Source: a virus. From it: 20,402 bases of DNA. The first letter of the stretch is position 1, and every line of letters starts with the position of its first letter. A program made the translations under genes and the position numbers. Shown one piece after another: positions 3,933-9,790 of the stretch. The stretch lies in UHGV virus genome UHGV-0113240. One strand, written 5' to 3'. The notes under the pieces were generated by a model. That model saw only the letters and a list, made by a program, of their open reading frames with translations. It searched no databases and was not told where the DNA came from.

Positions 3933-4709
3933 CTACTCACCTCCTTTGATGCGAATGCCAGCGGCGCGCTCGGCTTCACTTTGTTCCCAAAACCACTTGT
4001 GAAGCGCCATAAGCTTTTCGTCAATCGGTGCATATTTGCGATTAAAGTAGGCCTGAGCATCTTTCTCAGATTCGTCCGGCAATTCGCCTGGGCCAAACAG
4101 TGTGTTATAAATCCATGCCAGTCCGCTCTTAGCGTCGCCAGTTGCCTGCCATTCGATAATGGCAGCCTGCATGACCAGAATGTTTTTCCCGATTAATAGG
4201 TCCAGTTCTTTGTACCGGTTGCGGATGTATGCATTCTCGCTTTGTAATTTTGCGTTGCGCTTTTCTGAGGCTTCAAGTAACGCCTGCTTATCGCGTAGCG
4301 CTTCTTCCAGTTCAGCAACATGGCATTCACTATCAATAAGGTTGTTCTCTGCTGCTTCCAGCTCAACACGCAGCTTCCCTACCGTTAACGCCATCTCCTC
4401 GTTCTCCTGGTCGCGGCGTTTGATGTATTGCTGGTTTCTTTCCAGCTCATCCAGCAGCGCCAAGACGGTAGCAGGATTGGCTGCGGCGATGAATTCAGCA
4501 TTGGCCTGCTGTTCCATTTGGAAATCTTCATCGAAACCGCTTTCTGGATGCGCTCCTTCAATTCTGCAAATAGGAATATATCCAGCAACTTCACGATGAA
4601 TTAGCGCATCATCACCATCAAATCGGCTCTCTCCATATTCGAGCGACCACTCACCACACGTTGCTTTTTCTGCCGCCTCACGCAGTGCCTGATAATTAAT
4701 TTCGCTCAC
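3933..4709 (-). CDS. Ead/Ea22-like protein
   Basis: 258-aa ORF with N-terminal MSEINYQALREAAEKATCGEW... and a central coiled-coil-like segment, as in lambdoid ead/Ea22-family proteins; lies in the b2/ea region between xis and exo. Confidence 0.6.
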   Translation of the reverse strand: MSEINYQALREAAEKATCGEWSLEYGESRFDGDDALIHREVAGYIPICRIEGAHPESGFDEDFQMEQQANAEFIAAANPATVLALLDELERNQQYIKRRDQENEEMALTVGKLRVELEAAENNLIDSECHVAELEEALRDKQALLEASEKRNAKLQSENAYIRNRYKELDLLIGKNILVMQAAIIEWQATGDAKSGLAWIYNTLFGPGELPDESEKDAQAYFNRKYAPIDEKLMALHKWFWEQSEAERAAGIRIKGGE

Positions 4710-4927
4710 TTCGAACCTCTCTGTTTACTGATAAGCTCCAGATCCTCCTGGCAACTTGCACAAGTCCGACAACCCTGAACGGCCAGGCGTCTTCGCTCAT
4801 CTATGGGATCGCCACACTCACAACAATGAGTGGCAGATATAGCCTGGTGGTTCAGGCGGCGCATTTTTATTGCTGTGTTGCGCTGTAATTCTTCAATTTC
4901 TGATGCTGAATCAATGAGGTCTGCCAT
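4706..4927 (-). CDS. TraR/DksA-family C4 zinc-finger protein
   Basis: 73-aa ORF with CxxC-(17)-CxxC (CCECGDPI...CRTCASCQ); stop overlaps the ea22-like start. Confidence 0.7.
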   Translation of the reverse strand: MADLIDSASEIEELQRNTAIKMRRLNHQAISATHCCECGDPIDERRRLAVQGCRTCASCQEDLELISKQRGSK

Positions 4928-4975
4928 CTTCCATTAATCCCTGAATTGTTGGTTAATACGCTTGAAGGTGAATGC

Positions 4976-5003
4976 GAATAATAAAAAAGGAGCCTGTAGC
5001 TCC
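4976..5003 (-). terminator. intrinsic terminator on the minus strand
   Basis: Minus-strand GGAGC-tacag-GCTCC hairpin followed by TTTTTTATTATT, 3' of the 5026..5241 ORF. Confidence 0.55.
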
Positions 5004-5025
5004 CTGATGATTTTGCTTTTCATGT

Positions 5026-5241
5026 TTACCGTTCCTTAAAGACGCCGTTTAACATACCGATTGCCAGACTTAAGTGAGTCGGTGTGAATCCCATCAGCGT
5101 TACCGTTTCGCGGTGCTTCTTCAGTACGCTACGGCAAATGTCATCGACGTTTTTATCCGGAAACTGCTGTCTGGCATTTTTAATTTCAGAATTAGCCTGA
5201 CGGGCAATACTGCGAAGGGCGTTTTCTTGCTGAGGTGTCAT
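5026..5241 (-). CDS. lambda orf61-like small protein (start at internal ATG 5241)
   Basis: 71-aa ORF MTPQQENALRSIARQ...; its ATG overlaps the TGA of the upstream 27-aa peptide ORF; position matches the small ORFs between ea22 and exo in lambda. Confidence 0.5.
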   Translation of the reverse strand: MTPQQENALRSIARQANSEIKNARQQFPDKNVDDICRSVLKKHRETVTLMGFTPTHLSLAIGMLNGVFKER

Positions 5242-5321
5242 TGAACAAGTCCCATGTCGGCAAGCATAAGCACACAGAATATGAAGCCCGCTGCCAGAAA
5301 AATGCATTCAGTGGTTGTCAT
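5238..5321 (-). CDS. 27-aa hydrophobic peptide (MTTTECIFLAAGFIFCVLMLADMGLVQ), not in the ORF track
   Basis: ATG 5321..5319 overlaps the TGA of the upstream ORF and its TGA overlaps the ATG of the downstream ORF (two ATGA junctions); 16-residue hydrophobic core. Confidence 0.35.
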   Translation of the reverse strand: MTTTECIFLAAGFIFCVLMLADMGLVQ

Positions 5322-5509
5322 ACCTGGTCTCTCTCATCTGCTTCTGCTTTCGCCACCATCATTTCCAGCTTTTGTGAAAGGGATGTGGCTAACGTATGAA
5401 ATTCTTCATCTGTTTCTACTGGTATTGGCACAAACCTGACTCCAATTTGAGCAAGGCTATGTGCCATCTCAATACTCGTTCTTAACTTAACAGGAGATGC
5501 TTTGTGCAT
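5318..5509 (-). CDS. lambda orf63-like small protein
   Basis: 63-aa ORF; position between exo and ea22 matches lambda orf63; recalled similarity. Confidence 0.5.
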   Translation of the reverse strand: MHKASPVKLRTSIEMAHSLAQIGVRFVPIPVETDEEFHTLATSLSQKLEMMVAKAEADERDQV

Positions 5510-5670
5510 ATCGCCTCCCGTTTATTATTCATCTCCTCAGCCAGCCGCTGTGCTTTCAGGGGATTTCGGATAACAGAAAGACCGGGAAATACCCAGCCTC
5601 GCTTTGTAACGGAGTAGACGAAAGTGATTGCGCCCACCCGGATATTATCGTGAGGATGCTTCATCGCCAT
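5482..5670 (-). CDS. lambda orf60a-like / DUF1317-like small protein
   Basis: 62-aa ORF immediately upstream of exo, overlapping exo's start region as in lambda. Confidence 0.5.
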
Positions 5671-6341
5671 TGCTCCCCAAATACAAAACCAATTTCAGCC
5701 AGTGCCTCGTCCATTCTTTCGATGAACTCCGGCACCATCTCGTCAAAACTCGCTATGTACTTTTCATCCCGCTCAACCACGACATAATGCAGTCCTTCAC
5801 GCTTCATACGCGGGTCATAGTTGGCAAAGTACCAGGCATCTTTTCGTGTCACCCACATGCTGTACTGCACCTGGGCCATGTAAGCCGACTTTATGGCCTC
5901 GAAACCACCGAGCCGGAACTTCATGAAATCCCGGGAGGTAAACGGGCATTTCAGCTCAAGGCCATTGCCGTCACTGCATAAACCATCGGGAGAGCAGGCG
6001 GTGCGCATACTTTCGTCGCGATAGATGATCGGGGATTCAGTAACATTCACGCCGGAAGTGAACTCAAACAGGGTTCTGGCGTCGTTCTCGTACTGTTTTC
6101 CCCAGGCCAGTGCTTTAGCGTTAACTTCCGGAGCCACACCGGTGCAAACCTCGGCAAGCAGGGTGTGGAAGTAGGACATTTTCATGTCAGGCCACTTCTT
6201 TCCGGAGCGGGGTTTTGCTATCACGTTGTGAACTTCTGAAGCGGTGATGACGCCGAGCCGTAATTTGTGCCACGCATCATCCCCCTGTTCGACAGCTCTC
6301 ACGTCGATCCCGGTACGCTGCAGTATAATGTCCGGTGTCAT
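5661..6341 (-). CDS. exo: lambda exonuclease (Red-alpha)
   Basis: 226-aa protein recalled as near-identical to phage lambda Exo ([38 protein letters not shown]...). Confidence 0.95.
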
Positions 6342-7128: not shown

Positions 7129-7425
7129 TTATACCTCTGAATCAATATCAACCTGGTGGTGAGCAATGGTTTCAACCATGTACCGGATGTGTTCTGCCAT
7201 GCGCTCCTGAAACTCAACATCGTCATCAAACGCACGGGTAATGGCTTTTTTGCTGGCCCCGTGGCGTTGCAAATGATCGATGCATAGCGATTCAAACAGG
7301 TGCTGGGGCAGGCCTTTTTCCATGTTGTCTGCCAGTTCTGCCTCTTTCTCTTCACGGGCGATCTGCTGGTAGTGACGCGCCCAACTCTGAGCCTCAAGAC
7401 GATCCTGAATGTAATAAGCGTTCAT
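7129..7425 (-). CDS. gam: host-nuclease (RecBCD) inhibitor Gam, short form
   Basis: 98-aa protein [21 protein letters not shown]... matching lambda GamS; the upstream in-frame extension is closed by TAA 16 codons before the ATG. Confidence 0.9.
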
Positions 7426-7791: not shown

Positions 7792-7984
7792 AACTAAGCC
7801 GCCTCGTTGAAGCGACTAAGGTATGAAATGTTGAGTTGATTTCAGCTGGTCACACCGACGTTCACGCGTCCGTTTCACCCCTCGCACTCCCCGGAGCCTG
7901 CTGAAATTCAAGCTGCGGATCTAAGCGGTCATCGCAACGGTGAATCAGGTGGTTGCCGTATCGTTGTGTTGTTGCGACATGGTG

Positions 7985-8035
7985 ATAATAGCTATTGCTA
8001 TTGGTGATATCAATACTTATTGCTATTGTTAGATG
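7985..8035 (-). promoter_or_regulatory. OL-like operator cluster / presumed leftward early promoter
   Basis: Repeated ATTGCTATTG motifs and a TATTGgtgatatCAATA palindrome; the same TTGCTATTG motif recurs in the cI-cro intergenic region. Confidence 0.45.
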
Positions 8036-8149
8036 TGTTTTGATATTAAATGTTTGATAGCAAAAAGAATTAATTTTGTGACTTGCATCGCATAGCGATA
8101 ACTGAAGGGAGGTTGTGGTGGTTTTTTGAACGGTTTGTGTGATGAGGGG

Positions 8150-8213: not shown

Positions 8214-9041
8214 TTAGACTTGAGGAAGTATTTTTTTTGCAAAATCAATAGTTTCTTTGTGGCTGGATGCAGGTATATGATTTATTTTCTTAGCATCCAT
8301 AGTTCTCTTTATGATGTCAATAACTTTGCTTTGGCCTGAGTTTGGTGATTCAGGGGTTTCAATTGTGAATAGAATGTCATCAAGTGAAAGCAGGTTTTCT
8401 TCTGCTGCTCGAGTTATTCTCATCACCCAAGTATCACTATGCTCCATCATTTTTCCGGGTTCAGTTTGAGTGAATGCCAGAGGTTTGATGGCACATTGGA
8501 TCCTGTCGTGCTTCTTGGCGACCAATGGCATTGAGAACTTTGCGAAATACCCATCAATAGTTGCTTGTTTGAAGACGTTCTTCAATCCATCTATTCTATC
8601 GATACTGCGTTTTAGCTCTCTAGCTAGGACATCTTCACGGCGCTCTTTTGTGTAGTCAGCGTGGTTTACATATTTATTGTAAATGCGAGCCAACTCTTCT
8701 TTCGGGTTTTCACTGAGGATAACTCTCGTAGAGCTGAACTGAAAAATTGATTCTTTTTTGTTTGTAAAATATCTGAAGAATTGTGCAAGTTGTTGATGTC
8801 CAACAATCTGGGTAGCATGCATTTTTGCGAACTGGAGTTCTCTTTGTATTGAGTCTTTTGCTACGGGAAAAATGCAATCATCATGGAAGAAATTCTTTAC
8901 ACGAGAGTCATTTCGCTTTGTGAGCTGGAAGTCAAAGTAATTTTCTTTTGGCGCGCACAGAAGTACGCCTATGTTTGCGAACTCTTCAGTCTCCGCATAA
9001 GGCGCATAGCGAACGATGCTATATAGGCATGGAGTTGTCAT
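8214..9041 (-). CDS. DUF3037-like protein (start at ATG 9041, overlapping the upstream TGA)
   Basis: 275-aa ORF; N-terminal CLYSIVRYAPYAETEEFANIGVLL resembles the conserved N-terminal motif recalled for DUF3037; ATGA overlap with the kinase-like gene. Confidence 0.55.
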   Translation of the reverse strand: MTTPCLYSIVRYAPYAETEEFANIGVLLCAPKENYFDFQLTKRNDSRVKNFFHDDCIFPVAKDSIQRELQFAKMHATQIVGHQQLAQFFRYFTNKKESIFQFSSTRVILSENPKEELARIYNKYVNHADYTKERREDVLARELKRSIDRIDGLKNVFKQATIDGYFAKFSMPLVAKKHDRIQCAIKPLAFTQTEPGKMMEHSDTWVMRITRAAEENLLSLDDILFTIETPESPNSGQSKVIDIIKRTMDAKKINHIPASSHKETIDFAKKILPQV

Positions 9042-9790
9042 TCTATTGCGCTCCAAAATTCATCACAATCACCTTTGCCTAGCGTAGTGCAGACAAAAGG
9101 TAAAAACTCATCATCTACTATCCACTCCTCTGGAATTTCGTCAAGGATAGCAGGAAGTTTGTGTAAACTGTCAACGACCCTCTGGCGGTACTCTACGCGA
9201 TCCACTAAATCATACTGCCATTTGCGGTTACCCGGGCCGTACACGTGTACAGAAAAATCTTCAGGCCCAGCATTCTGATCAAATGATAGATTATGGTCAA
9301 TCAGATAATACTTATCGTTACTGATGTCATAAAGGATATTGACGTTTCCGCCTTTATCAGTAAGCGTTCTGTCTGCATTTAATATCCACTTATCAAAAGC
9401 ATAGATTAATTTTTGCTGTTCGACTGGGATGATCATTTCGTTTCTTGACTGCGTAAACGTTAACGCGATTGCACCGTCTATGAACAATGAAGCAAAAGCA
9501 TACCCTGTACAAATTTGTTGCTGCAGATCAGGTGTGTACTCTACAAGTTCCTCTGGTACAAATACGATTTTAAAGTCAGGTAAAGGAAGGCCGATATCAT
9601 TAGCCAGGCACGCCGAAATGAACTCAGCTAAGAGATTTTTCGGGGGCATTGATGGTTTAGATTTCAAAACATACAACTGCCCATCATCACATTTGCAAAG
9701 AAATGGCTGAGTGGAACCTTCATTGATGCGACGTATTACTTCAACGACATTAGGTATTGCACTACTGCTGCTTGCTTCGCGCTCCATCAC
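9038..9790 (-). CDS. atypical HipA / PI-kinase-like kinase-domain protein
   Basis: 250-aa ORF with LYVLK (candidate beta3 Lys), WILNADRTLTDKGGNVNIL (DRxxxxxxN-type catalytic loop) and YYLIDHNLSFD (DFG-like) motifs; directly downstream of cI. Confidence 0.5.
   Translation of the reverse strand: MMEREASSSSAIPNVVEVIRRINEGSTQPFLCKCDDGQLYVLKSKPSMPPKNLLAEFISACLANDIGLPLPDFKIVFVPEELVEYTPDLQQQICTGYAFASLFIDGAIALTFTQSRNEMIIPVEQQKLIYAFDKWILNADRTLTDKGGNVNILYDISNDKYYLIDHNLSFDQNAGPEDFSVHVYGPGNRKWQYDLVDRVEYRQRVVDSLHKLPAILDEIPEEWIVDDEFLPFVCTTLGKGDCDEFWSAIE

Follow-up and report, generated by a model that had tools for sequence, protein, structure and literature searches.

The exo-xis region of the lambda pL operon contains the genes orf60a, orf63, orf61, orf73, and ea22, in that order (Wegrzyn and Donaldson laboratories; PMC8614690, PMC6213356, PMC4195576). 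Lambda serves as the reference among temperate phages, and its exo-xis block is actively studied as a modulator of Stx-prophage induction in EHEC. The exo-xis literature assigns the interval between orf63 and orf61 to the N-terminus of Orf61, and the delta-orf61 mutants published on this region lack both of the reading frames that we describe below as a 27-aa ORF and a 71-aa gene. An NMR structure has been published for lambda Orf63 (PMC10869804), and a 31-aa peptide gene was reportedly found in the exo-xis block by ribosome profiling (review PMC8614690). The new peptides from lambda ribosome profiling that this review lists for the block are 7 and 31 aa long only.

Small membrane proteins of at most 50 aa in E. 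coli sets (PMC10723866) resemble the 27-aa peptide in length, in the single helix predicted here, in omission from annotation, and in an overlapping polycistronic position. Compared with the described small membrane protein families, the putative peptide shows no sequence relationship and has no flanking Lys or Arg. Cistrons joined by ATGA termination–reinitiation are common in phage operons and share with the 27-aa ORF the four-base overlap, present here at both ends, and the weak downstream Shine–Dalgarno (SD) sequence; the ORF may be translationally coupled as well. Because this middle cistron has only 27 codons, its main role could be that of a relay, unlike in the usual coupled cistrons. 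The lambda pL operon also carries the host-killing gene kil, and the Hok/Gef and lambda Kil peptides are likewise small, Hok being a hydrophobic membrane peptide.

The lambda gene order, with the DUF1317, DUF1382, TraR/DksA, and Ea22 domains, recurs in the window analyzed here, a stretch of 20,402 nucleotides of viral DNA (UHGV-0113240). The relevant segment is 96–97% identical in nucleotide sequence to lambda, 434, 933W, and phi24B. Where the literature places the N-terminus of Orf61, we distinguish the 27-aa ORF, which may be a separate cistron, from a 71-aa gene (orf71). We consider it fairly likely that the exo-xis block has a genuine additional cistron, the third in this trio, in the 84-nt stretch leading from orf63 to the 71-aa gene. 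It would code for a coupled small hydrophobic peptide that relays ribosomes to orf71 and probably also has a separate function.

Gene Organization of the Locus

The segment corresponds to the lambdoid exo-xis region of the pL operon and comprises the following features, given in the order of transcription.

7129–7425: gam, with the 27-aa ORF about 2 kb further down the transcript
5661–6341, minus strand: exo (lambda exonuclease, 226 aa; Pfam YqaJ, 6e-30; annotated as exo in homologous records)
5482–5670, minus strand: orf60a homologue (Pfam DUF1317, 1.5e-38)
5318–5509, minus strand: orf63 homologue (63 aa; Pfam DUF1382, 1.7e-30), with its stop codon TGA at 5320–5318
5318–5321, minus strand: first ATGA junction, orf63 stop and 27-aa ORF start, read directly from the sequence
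5242–5307, minus strand: claimed N-terminal extension of a 93-aa "Orf61" (MHFSGSGLHILCAYACRHGTCS), judged non-coding in that frame
5238–5321, minus strand: 27-aa ORF (MTTTECIFLAAGFIFCVLMLADMGLVQ), with ATG at 5321–5319 and TGA at 5240–5238, from the ORF list
5238–5241, minus strand: second ATGA junction, 27-aa ORF stop and 71-aa ORF start, read directly from the sequence
5026–5241, minus strand: 71-aa gene (MTPQQ...), the true "orf61" homologue, called as 71 aa by PGAP
4934–5023, minus strand: 29-aa ORF (MKSKIIRELQAPFLL...), homologue of a 31-aa lambda ORF, from the ORF list
4706–4927, minus strand: orf73 homologue (73 aa; TraR/DksA C4 zinc finger; Pfam zf-dskA_traR, 7.7e-9), the next exo-xis gene
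3933–4709, minus strand: ea22 (Pfam Ea22, 3.6e-34)

On the minus strand, orf63 (5509–5318), the 27-aa ORF (5321–5238), and the 71-aa ORF (5241–5026) are linked by two ATGA stop/start overlaps. A preliminary description of this DNA had reported the ORF coordinates, both junctions, and a 16-residue hydrophobic core, all of which we find as described in the sequence and the ORF list. It had also placed the trio upstream of exo, which is an error. Because these genes are transcribed from the minus strand, the trio lies downstream of exo, and exo is its upstream neighbor in the pL transcript.

Overlaps of this kind recur in the same operon, with other ATGA or GTGA junctions at bet/exo, exo/orf60a, and orf73/ea22. 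The start of exo overlaps the bet stop (ATGA, 6341–6338), and the stop of orf73 overlaps the GTG start of ea22 (4709–4706). The orf60a homologue has 62 aa if read from ATG 5670. Read from ATG 5664, which is the second Met and the PGAP choice, it has 60 aa, and this start forms an ATGA with the exo stop (5664–5661). The overlap between orf63 and orf60a is 28 nt.

The 31-aa lambda ORF in the orf61/orf73 interval, apparently the "orf2313" cited in PMC8614690, is also very short and adjoins the 71-aa gene. Its 29-aa homologue in the window contains an intrinsic-terminator-like hairpin (5005–4987 plus a T run) and has no significant coding signature (8 synonymous to 16 nonsynonymous changes, P = 0.18), whereas the 27-aa ORF has such a signature and is not listed among the new ORFs reported in that review.

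Properties of the Predicted 27-Residue Peptide

The hydrophobic core of the peptide, C6–A21, consists of 16 uncharged residues and reaches 22 residues with E5 and D22 included. Its best 16-residue Kyte–Doolittle segment scores 2.81, the second-highest value among the window's 357 ORFs with 20 aa or more, and the ORF shows a strong period-3 hydrophobic composition. Judging from the hydrophobicity profile, the single hydrophobic helix proposed in the preliminary description is plausible. E5 and D22 are the only charged residues, giving a net charge of –2 with no Lys or Arg. The peptide has the helix-length hydrophobic segment of a small inner-membrane protein and does not have the positively charged flank called for by the positive-inside rule. 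Without Lys or Arg, it is atypical among small inner-membrane proteins, which obey this rule.

We found no Pfam match to the peptide even at E ≤ 10, and searches against NCBIfam and PHROGs gave only sub-threshold matches to generic transmembrane segments. A tblastn search of 50,697 phage records (E ≤ 10) retrieved 176 records with the peptide, including lambda, 434, 933W, and VT2-Sakai. At least 80% of the peptide is covered in 175 of these, and 175 of the 176 are at least 92.6% identical to it; the remaining one is a chance match, and no distant relatives appeared in this search. Neither tblastn nor the Pfam, NCBIfam, and PHROG profiles detected homologues outside the exo-xis module.

Rfam has no match over the stretch that contains the ORF. 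A structured RNA element was rejected on this basis and on folding, as the RNA of the ORF folds worse than 200 of 200 shuffled sequences (z = +2.2). Programmed frameshifting from orf63 into the downstream frames was considered as well and seems unlikely, with no slippery heptamer visible at the junction when the sequence was read by eye.

Distribution and Existing Annotation

Phage lambda encodes an identical peptide (31008–30925), hidden beneath the annotated orf61. Among 5426 complete E. coli genomes, 3144 (about 58%) carry the ORF, with about 4,260 copies in total, and it is therefore a widespread candidate small protein absent from current annotation. The peptide had been called unannotated, which is accurate for RefSeq lambda, for the current PGAP annotation of E. 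coli, and for the phage records that we inspected. Public protein collections do contain the exact peptide, as a "hypothetical protein" and as the UniRef entry A0A0A2SGE8_ECOLX, on 981 contigs. The omission had been ascribed to length-filtered ORF calling. This holds in part; most phage records cover the stretch with an over-extended "orf61" call in another frame, which is 93 aa long in most phage records and 61 aa in lambda.

A full-text literature search with the peptide string returned no match, and we found no discussion of the peptide; it is not contained in the supplements of a small-gene Ribo-seq study of EHEC Sakai. The family is narrow: it is restricted to E. coli, with at least 90% identity throughout. 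A scan of genome contigs for host range gave 17 matches in unrelated taxa, several of them lying on low-coverage, lambda-sized contigs of about 48.4–48.5 kb. Because these contigs carry the lambda-specific frameshift described below, we attribute them to lambda contamination, and they give no information on host range.

Conservation and Frame-Specific Selection

We assembled 399 copies of the locus, which fall into 147 distinct contexts and carry 31 different nucleotide haplotypes. The 27-aa ORF is intact in about 397 of the 399 copies, and its peptide sequence is unchanged in 122 of the 147 contexts. One of the two disruptions is a 1-nt deletion in a metagenome contig of 1.3× coverage; the other is a single locus in which the 5' two-thirds of the ORF are replaced. 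In two contexts, the last codon is a stop (TAATGA) and the start overlap is kept. In one lineage, the second junction reads GTGA, so that the 71-aa gene starts with GTG, and the overlap is again kept. The preliminary description had named disruption of the frame in close homologs with conserved flanking ORFs as an observation that would count against it; we found the ORF intact and conserved alongside conserved flanking genes. As the whole block is 93–98% identical among copies, intactness of the ORF by itself is weak evidence.

We also compared substitutions between reading frames. At 30 variant sites, the peptide frame shows 15 synonymous and 15 nonsynonymous changes, against 23–26% synonymous changes expected (P = 0.001–0.004, omega ~0.3); these 30 events are phylogenetically non-independent, since the copies are at least 90% identical and restricted to E. 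coli. Among variants present in at least three contexts, the ratio is 10 synonymous to 3 nonsynonymous. The two other sense frames show 7 synonymous to 23 nonsynonymous changes (omega ~1). The signal in the peptide frame is as strong as in the accepted neighbors orf60a (DUF1317; 23:30, P = 0.007), orf71 (22:27, P = 0.002), and orf73, and stronger than in orf63. The antisense shadow frame shows a weaker signal (9:13), which is lost where this frame continues into orf63. This pattern of substitutions indicates purifying selection on the peptide sequence, exactly in the 27-aa frame.

A 61-aa antisense ORF (5254–5439, plus strand) has its third codon positions in common with the peptide frame. We considered it for this reason and rejected it, as it has no signal over the two-thirds that overlap orf63 and no promoter.

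Mosaic Boundary and Possible Translational Coupling

In some copies, a gene for a phage N6-adenine methyltransferase takes the place of orf63, the replacement reaching exactly to the first ATGA. The contexts upstream of the ORF are of the methyltransferase type in 34 cases and of the orf63 type in 276, and the methyltransferase mosaic provides the sequence GGGAGG five bases upstream of the peptide start. Calculated SD duplex energies are –5.6 kcal/mol for the 27-aa ORF, –3.9 for orf71, and –3.8 for the 93-aa start; those of bet, exo, orf63, and gam range from –7 to –11 kcal/mol. As in coupled cistrons, a stop/start overlap is combined at orf71 with the lack of a strong independent ribosome binding site. 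Coupled translation, as put forward in the preliminary description, is plausible with only a weak SD at the 71-aa start. In a common mosaic without the peptide (a cluster of 344 members), the 71-aa gene has an unchanged start, lies directly behind another gene, and is preceded by a GAGG SD of its own, so that this gene can do without the peptide.

A possible explanation would involve a relay and nothing else, in which translation of the ORF carries ribosomes over the 80-nt gap between orf63 and the SD-poor orf71 and keeps the mRNA occupied, with the peptide as a functionless by-product. This would account for the stop/start overlap at each end, for a weak SD at orf71 that gives way to a proper one where the 27-aa ORF is absent, and for retention of the overlap with a GTG start of orf71 or a peptide one codon shorter. 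The lack of detectable peptide homologues outside the module is likewise in line with it. A relay needs only an open frame, however, and yet amino-acid changes are depleted (omega ~0.3; 10:3 among common variants), the identical peptide is retained in 122 of 147 contexts, and a period-3 hydrophobic composition is present that a relay does not require. We regard a pure relay as unlikely.

The stretch could also be an untranslated spacer, with a fortuitous ORF, fortuitous ATGA overlaps on both sides, and a conservation that merely reflects recent ancestry of a 96%-identical module. The high identity of the block (93–98% among copies) and the only moderate SD before the peptide AUG would fit this view, as would the fact that the 27-aa ORF is not among the new lambda ribosome-profiling ORFs as summarised in PMC8614690. 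Against it stand the frame-specific, period-3 excess of synonymous changes (P ~0.002) and the position of the mosaic breakpoint, which falls exactly at the start codon and is accompanied by a strong SD from the alternative upstream gene. A bridging ORF with an ATGA at each end would arise in the spacer by chance with a probability that we roughly estimate at about 0.9%, in agreement with the earlier claim that two consecutive junctions are improbable by chance. Finally, neither an RNA structure nor an RNA family explains the conservation. We consider an untranslated spacer very unlikely.

Orf61 and Other Alternatives

The 71-aa protein is helical, with AF2 pLDDT values of 74–91 in its core. 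It has no significant family match and no NCBIfam match, and its PDB Foldseek matches, among which there is no ZapA structure, are all at E > 1. With no significant PDB fold match, neither a published homeodomain idea nor the name "ZapA" is supported. Many database entries give the protein this latter name, which we rejected; the Pfam ZapA model scores 15.5 bits (E = 0.021), under its 23.8-bit cutoff.

In lambda, the 71-aa gene has a one-base insertion (A7 versus A6). Because this insertion shifts the frame, the annotated lambda orf61 is a composite, in which an out-of-frame spacer is fused to a frameshifted copy of the 71-aa gene. With its 71-aa gene frameshifted and its peptide ORF intact, lambda would be the clearest case if delta-orf61 phenotypes were due to the peptide, a reading taken up below.

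A long Orf61 is annotated in phi24B, BP-4795, PHROG 303, and RefSeq lambda. In this reading, the stretch encodes the N-terminal part of a longer protein, which in the window starts at ATG 5307 and has 93 aa and in lambda has 61 aa, and the 27-aa frame is accidental. On the lambda map, the 61-aa and 93-aa starts correspond to positions 31024 and 30994. The ORF is continuous in that frame in the window, many records as well as PHROG 303 use it, and published work treats the stretch as Orf61. However, the 22 N-terminal codons of the 93-aa frame show 7 synonymous to 23 nonsynonymous changes (omega ~1) and, among variants in at least three contexts, 2 to 11. The codon preceding the 93-aa ATG is polymorphic (TGA, GGA, or AGA), so that annotated "Orf61" lengths range from 61 to 100 aa; the start shifts with this codon, is not conserved, and has no usable, well-placed SD. 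In the AF2 model of the 93-aa protein, residues 1–20 have pLDDT values of 40–52, versus 74–91 for the remainder, and published models also disagree on residues 1–23. The mosaic carries the 71-aa protein from the same Met behind another gene, in line with the PGAP call, and in published work the product of the annotated ORF formed insoluble aggregates when over-expressed. We judge the N-terminal extension to be non-coding in that frame, and a long Orf61 to be highly improbable.

A toxic host-killing peptide of the Hok or Kil type, a special case of a functional peptide suggested in the preliminary description, is barely credible: the peptide is small and hydrophobic (rank 2 of 357) and comes from the early pL operon, yet Pfam, NCBIfam, PHROGs, and Rfam give no match to Hok/Gef, Kil, or any other toxin family; unlike Hok, its 27 residues include no basic residue and no periplasmic tail, and its size and charge pattern differ from those of Hok/Gef; its ORF forms part of the pL polycistron, overlapping a neighbor at each end, lies between orf63 and orf61 and not between cIII and gam as Kil does, and does not form an independent locus with a promoter or mok-like leader of its own; a consensus scan, which may miss weak promoters, found no plus-strand promoter-like site for an antisense RNA in or next to 5238–5321, the only sites being at 4953 and 5761; and no cognate antitoxin is evident for an ORF found in 58% of complete E. 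coli genomes.

Proposed Role and Implications

The reading that we favor is a third, coupled cistron of the exo-xis block. We infer that this cistron is transcribed early from pL. Ribosomes that end orf63 at the UGA would reinitiate at the overlapping AUG, aided by a GAGAGAG SD (GGGAGG in one mosaic). The product would be a very hydrophobic, acidic peptide of 27 residues with a single 16-residue helix, located most likely in the inner membrane. Ribosomes that terminate at the second UGA/AUG overlap would pass to the 71-aa gene, which itself is almost SD-less. The peptide probably has its own function, because its sequence is under purifying selection, and most plausibly it would bind or modulate a membrane protein of the host early in infection or during induction.

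A further step would be to regard the peptide as an early phage membrane factor and to hold that it, and not the "Orf61" protein, accounts for at least part of the lysis–lysogeny, induction, and survival phenotypes of delta-orf61 mutants; we think this quite unlikely. If the 27-aa ORF is a separate cistron, the reference annotation (lambda, phi24B, 933W, and PHROG 303) misplaces the 5' end of orf61, and the insoluble 93-aa protein used for modelling and expression carries 22 non-native residues. In that case, the delta-orf61 and frameshift phenotypes could not be traced to a single product, as the conserved 27-aa hydrophobic peptide is lost in the deletions too. If the membrane-factor reading is true as well, a functional inner-membrane gene would have been overlooked in the best-studied of all phages and in the majority of E. 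coli genomes.

Gene Order and Junctions

All genes in this part of the window are carried by the minus strand.

Genes of the operon segment, in transcript order
7425-7129, minus strand, gam
7123-6338, minus strand, bet
6341-5661, minus strand, exo
5670-5482, minus strand, DUF1317 gene (lambda orf60a)
5509-5318, minus strand, DUF1382 gene (lambda orf63)
5321-5238, minus strand, 27-aa ORF
5241-5026, minus strand, 71-aa ORF
5023-4934, minus strand, 29-aa ORF
4927-4706, minus strand, TraR/DksA zinc-finger gene (orf73)
4709-3933, minus strand, Ea22-like gene

Because of this order, the chain of small ORFs that the preliminary description placed upstream of exo lies downstream of it in the transcript. 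The 645-base block is 96-97.5% identical to its counterpart in 180 phage records, including 434, BP-4795, 933W, VT2-Sakai, and lambda, and is found in 3,352 of 5,426 complete E. coli genomes.

The TGA of orf63 (5320-5318) shares bases with the ATG of the 27-aa ORF (5321-5319), whose own TGA (5240-5238) runs into the ATG (5241-5239) that opens the 71-aa ORF; both of the consecutive ATGA junctions described earlier are thus present, at 5321-5318 and 5241-5238. Their supposed improbability is borne out by a rough null (window-derived sequence, base frequencies, right length modulo 3), which gives a chance of ~0.9% for an ORF that links two genes through an ATGA on either side. The same operon contains further overlaps at bet/exo (ATGA), exo/orf60a (ATGA, at the second Met), and orf73/ea22 (GTGA). 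The peptide has the 16-residue hydrophobic core that had been noticed, all of it uncharged, and ranks second in hydrophobicity among the 357 window ORFs of at least 20 aa.

Which ATG begins the orf60a homologue is ambiguous (5661-5670): ATG 5670 gives 62 aa, as in the 434 and BP-4795 records, and ATG 5664 gives 60 aa and the ATGA with the exo stop, as in PGAP and RefSeq lambda. Upstream of gam, the early left operon carries a two-gene cassette (8214-9790, minus strand) in which a HipA-like kinase gene (9790-9038, minus strand; HipA_2, 2e-76) overlaps a gene for a DUF3037 protein (9056-8214, minus strand; 8e-24). The cassette is possibly a moron, or else a module for defence or toxicity; the name 'HipD' appears here in the record of a related phage. 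A stretch with no gene assigned to it, flanked by gam and the DUF3037 gene, holds two overlapping ORFs of 30 aa and 20 aa (7940-8057, plus strand), which rank third and first in hydrophobicity among the window's ORFs.

Competing Gene Models

Three gene models claim the 80 bases from orf63 to MTPQQ: a 27-aa cistron followed by the 71-aa gene (model A); a 93-aa "Orf61" from ATG 5307, which shares its reading frame with the 71-aa gene (model B; IdasGreatGrand, BP-4795, phi24B, and PHROG 303); and a non-coding spacer followed by the 71-aa gene (model C; current PGAP and the phage 434 record). RefSeq lambda instead has a 61-aa orf61 starting 16 nt upstream of the peptide AUG. We consider the 27-aa ORF to be probably a real, translationally coupled cistron for a small hydrophobic peptide, likely membrane-associated and with its own function, that would secondarily deliver ribosomes to the 71-aa gene.

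The exact peptide occurs in public protein collections as a "hypothetical protein" (UniRef A0A0A2SGE8, on 981 contigs), so the term "unannotated" used previously holds only in part, namely for RefSeq lambda and the inspected PGAP rows and phage records, from which the peptide is absent. It has no family match in Pfam, NCBIfam, or PHROG and was not found in full-text literature or supplement searches. The exo-xis literature counts the interval as part of orf61. Published delta-orf61 mutants of lambda and phi24B had the whole annotated ORF replaced and therefore lost the peptide ORF too, and over-expression of annotated orf61 yielded insoluble aggregates. A review of the exo-xis block credits lambda ribosome profiling with adding 7-aa and 31-aa peptide genes to it (PMC8614690). 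Of the short ORFs in the window, it is the 29-aa one and not the 27-aa one that corresponds to the lambda 31-aa ORF; footprints on the 27-aa ORF would have been assigned to orf61 in such data.

In lambda, the peptide ORF is identical (31008-30925, by alignment). There, a synonymous ACT-to-ACG change removes the TGA closing another frame, which consequently opens further upstream, and the 71-aa gene is frameshifted by an extra A (A7 instead of A6). Together these changes produce the 61-aa composite that is lambda orf61 (NC_001416 30839-31024, locus L088; cf. locus L005, 1630-1846), consisting of out-of-frame spacer, codons 1-29 of the 71-aa gene, and a frameshifted tail. The BL21(DE3) copy is marked by PGAP as a pseudogene with a frameshift. 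The A7 allele occurs in only 22 loci, all lambda itself or lambda contamination, and the other 293 copies are intact. The anchor sequence was also matched in assemblies labelled Shewanella, Bradyrhizobium, Chromatium, Paenibacillus, Pseudomonas, Kitasatospora, Enterococcus, and others (loci L209-L225). Several of these matches are low-coverage contigs of ~48.4-48.5 kb, equal to the lambda genome size, with the lambda-specific frameshift; these public assemblies look contaminated with lambda DNA.

Translation Signals

The anti-Shine-Dalgarno (anti-SD) duplex at the peptide AUG (-5.6 kcal/mol) ranks close to the top 10% of AUGs on this strand. Values are -3.9 kcal/mol at the 71-aa start, -3.8 kcal/mol at the 93-aa start, where pairing lies 13 nt away, and -7 to -11 kcal/mol for bet, exo, orf63, and gam. 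Such a weak SD before the 71-aa gene is compatible with ribosomes reinitiating there after they finish the peptide ORF. A pure relay, in which translation of the ORF would serve this delivery alone, appears unlikely.

Just 2 nt separate the 71-aa stop from the 29-aa ORF (31 aa in lambda), which holds a strong intrinsic-terminator-like hairpin (5005-4987) with a T run.

Conservation and Substitution Pattern

Phage records, IMG/VR contigs, metagenome contigs, and E. coli chromosomes yielded 399 copies, which fall into 147 different contexts of 384 nt; the 84-nt ORF itself occurs as 31 nucleotide haplotypes. The 27-codon frame is conserved in relatives, with the identical peptide encoded in 122 of the 147 contexts and few disruptions. 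These are a 1-nt deletion in one metagenome contig at 1.3x coverage; replacement of the 5' two-thirds in a viral contig (L194), the sole rearranged copy among about 400, where unrelated sequence takes up the first ~55 nt and the final 30 nt persist along with the 71-aa gene; and a last-codon stop in two contexts (TAATGA) that still overlaps the next start.

Thirty variant events, which are few, phylogenetically non-independent, and drawn from a young family, divide into 15 synonymous and 15 non-synonymous in the peptide frame (23-26% synonymous expected; P 0.001-0.004 depending on transition bias; omega ~0.3), compared with 7:23 in the other two sense frames (omega 0.85-1.3). Variants shared by at least three contexts have a ratio of 10:3 in the peptide frame, against 2:11 for the remaining frames. 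The antisense frame sharing third positions is weaker (9:13), and the continuation of that ORF into orf63 gives no signal (18:49).

Same test on neighbouring ORFs, earlier 322-copy set (synonymous:non-synonymous)
DUF1317 gene, 23:30, P=0.007
orf63, 21:46, P=0.11
71-aa gene, 22:27, P=0.002
orf73, 42:47, P=3e-6
29-aa ORF, 8:16, P=0.18

By these ratios, the 27-aa ORF appears no less "coding" than the accepted genes around it; a clear coding signature was not seen in the 29-aa ORF polymorphism. In a diverged lineage (91.7% identity over the ORF, ~65 genomes), five synonymous and two non-synonymous changes give a peptide reading ...MLSGMGLVQ (L330 1027-1033; L332, E. coli LR130532, CRE444). One of these synonymous changes, CAA to CAG, turns the orf71 ATG into GTG, and the overlap with the peptide stop is kept.

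An RNA element was rejected as the cause of conservation, since RNA 5345-5215 folds worse than 200 of 200 shuffles (z=+2.2) and Rfam has no family match for the ORF region. The scan found no plus-strand promoter-like site near the ORF. We regard an untranslated spacer, as drawn in model C, as quite improbable.

Mosaic Joints and the 71-aa Start

In 34 contexts (L012, L094, and 32 others), and among E. coli genome matches H65, H66, and H165-H167, a phage N6-adenine methyltransferase gene stands in place of orf63. Homology to the window starts exactly at the ATGA of the 27-aa ORF, so that the peptide ORF and the 71-aa gene travel as a module and the peptide ORF begins at an intergenic recombination joint. 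The methyltransferase 3' end provides GGGAGG at a proper distance before the peptide AUG.

In a second common mosaic (344-member protein cluster; L086 1741-2716, L331 762-1737), orf63, the peptide ORF, and the 71-aa gene up to about codon 7 have given way to an uncharacterised 250-aa gene for which no Pfam match is recorded. The 71-aa protein here still has the equivalent Met as its start, which follows the upstream stop by 8 nt; it has its own GAGG SD and a variant N-terminus (MTIEHNNALRS...). This arrangement confirms the 71-aa start and shows that the 71-aa gene can do without the peptide. The equivalent start also argues against the 93-aa Orf61 of model B, which we judge very improbable. 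AlphaFold2 assigns the 93-aa form a pLDDT of 40 (residues 1-10) and 52 (residues 11-20) versus 74-91 (residues 21-90), which fits a 71-aa protein that is helical and folded, preceded by a non-native extension; published models likewise disagree on residues 1-23 (PMC8614690).

Foldseek against the PDB returned nothing significant for the Orf61/71-aa protein, and the ZapA fold was not among the matches. Many NCBI entries name it 'cell division protein ZapA' (database homologues P0007, P0010, P0017, and others). This name is unsupported, the sole basis found for it being a sub-threshold Pfam match (E=0.021; 15.5 bits versus a 23.8-bit cut-off); it is probably a propagated mis-annotation.

Implications for orf61

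From the preliminary interpretation, the coupled small hydrophobic ORF is supported, whereas the position relative to exo and the Hok/Kil analogy are not. A toxin resembling Hok or Kil, which would be one form of a functional peptide, has no support and is very improbable. The absence of basic residues counts among the main weaknesses of the coupled-cistron reading. Under that reading, the 27-aa ORF would join the small coupled membrane-peptide genes, a kind already known, and the practical upshot would be re-annotation of orf61 in lambda and Stx phages.
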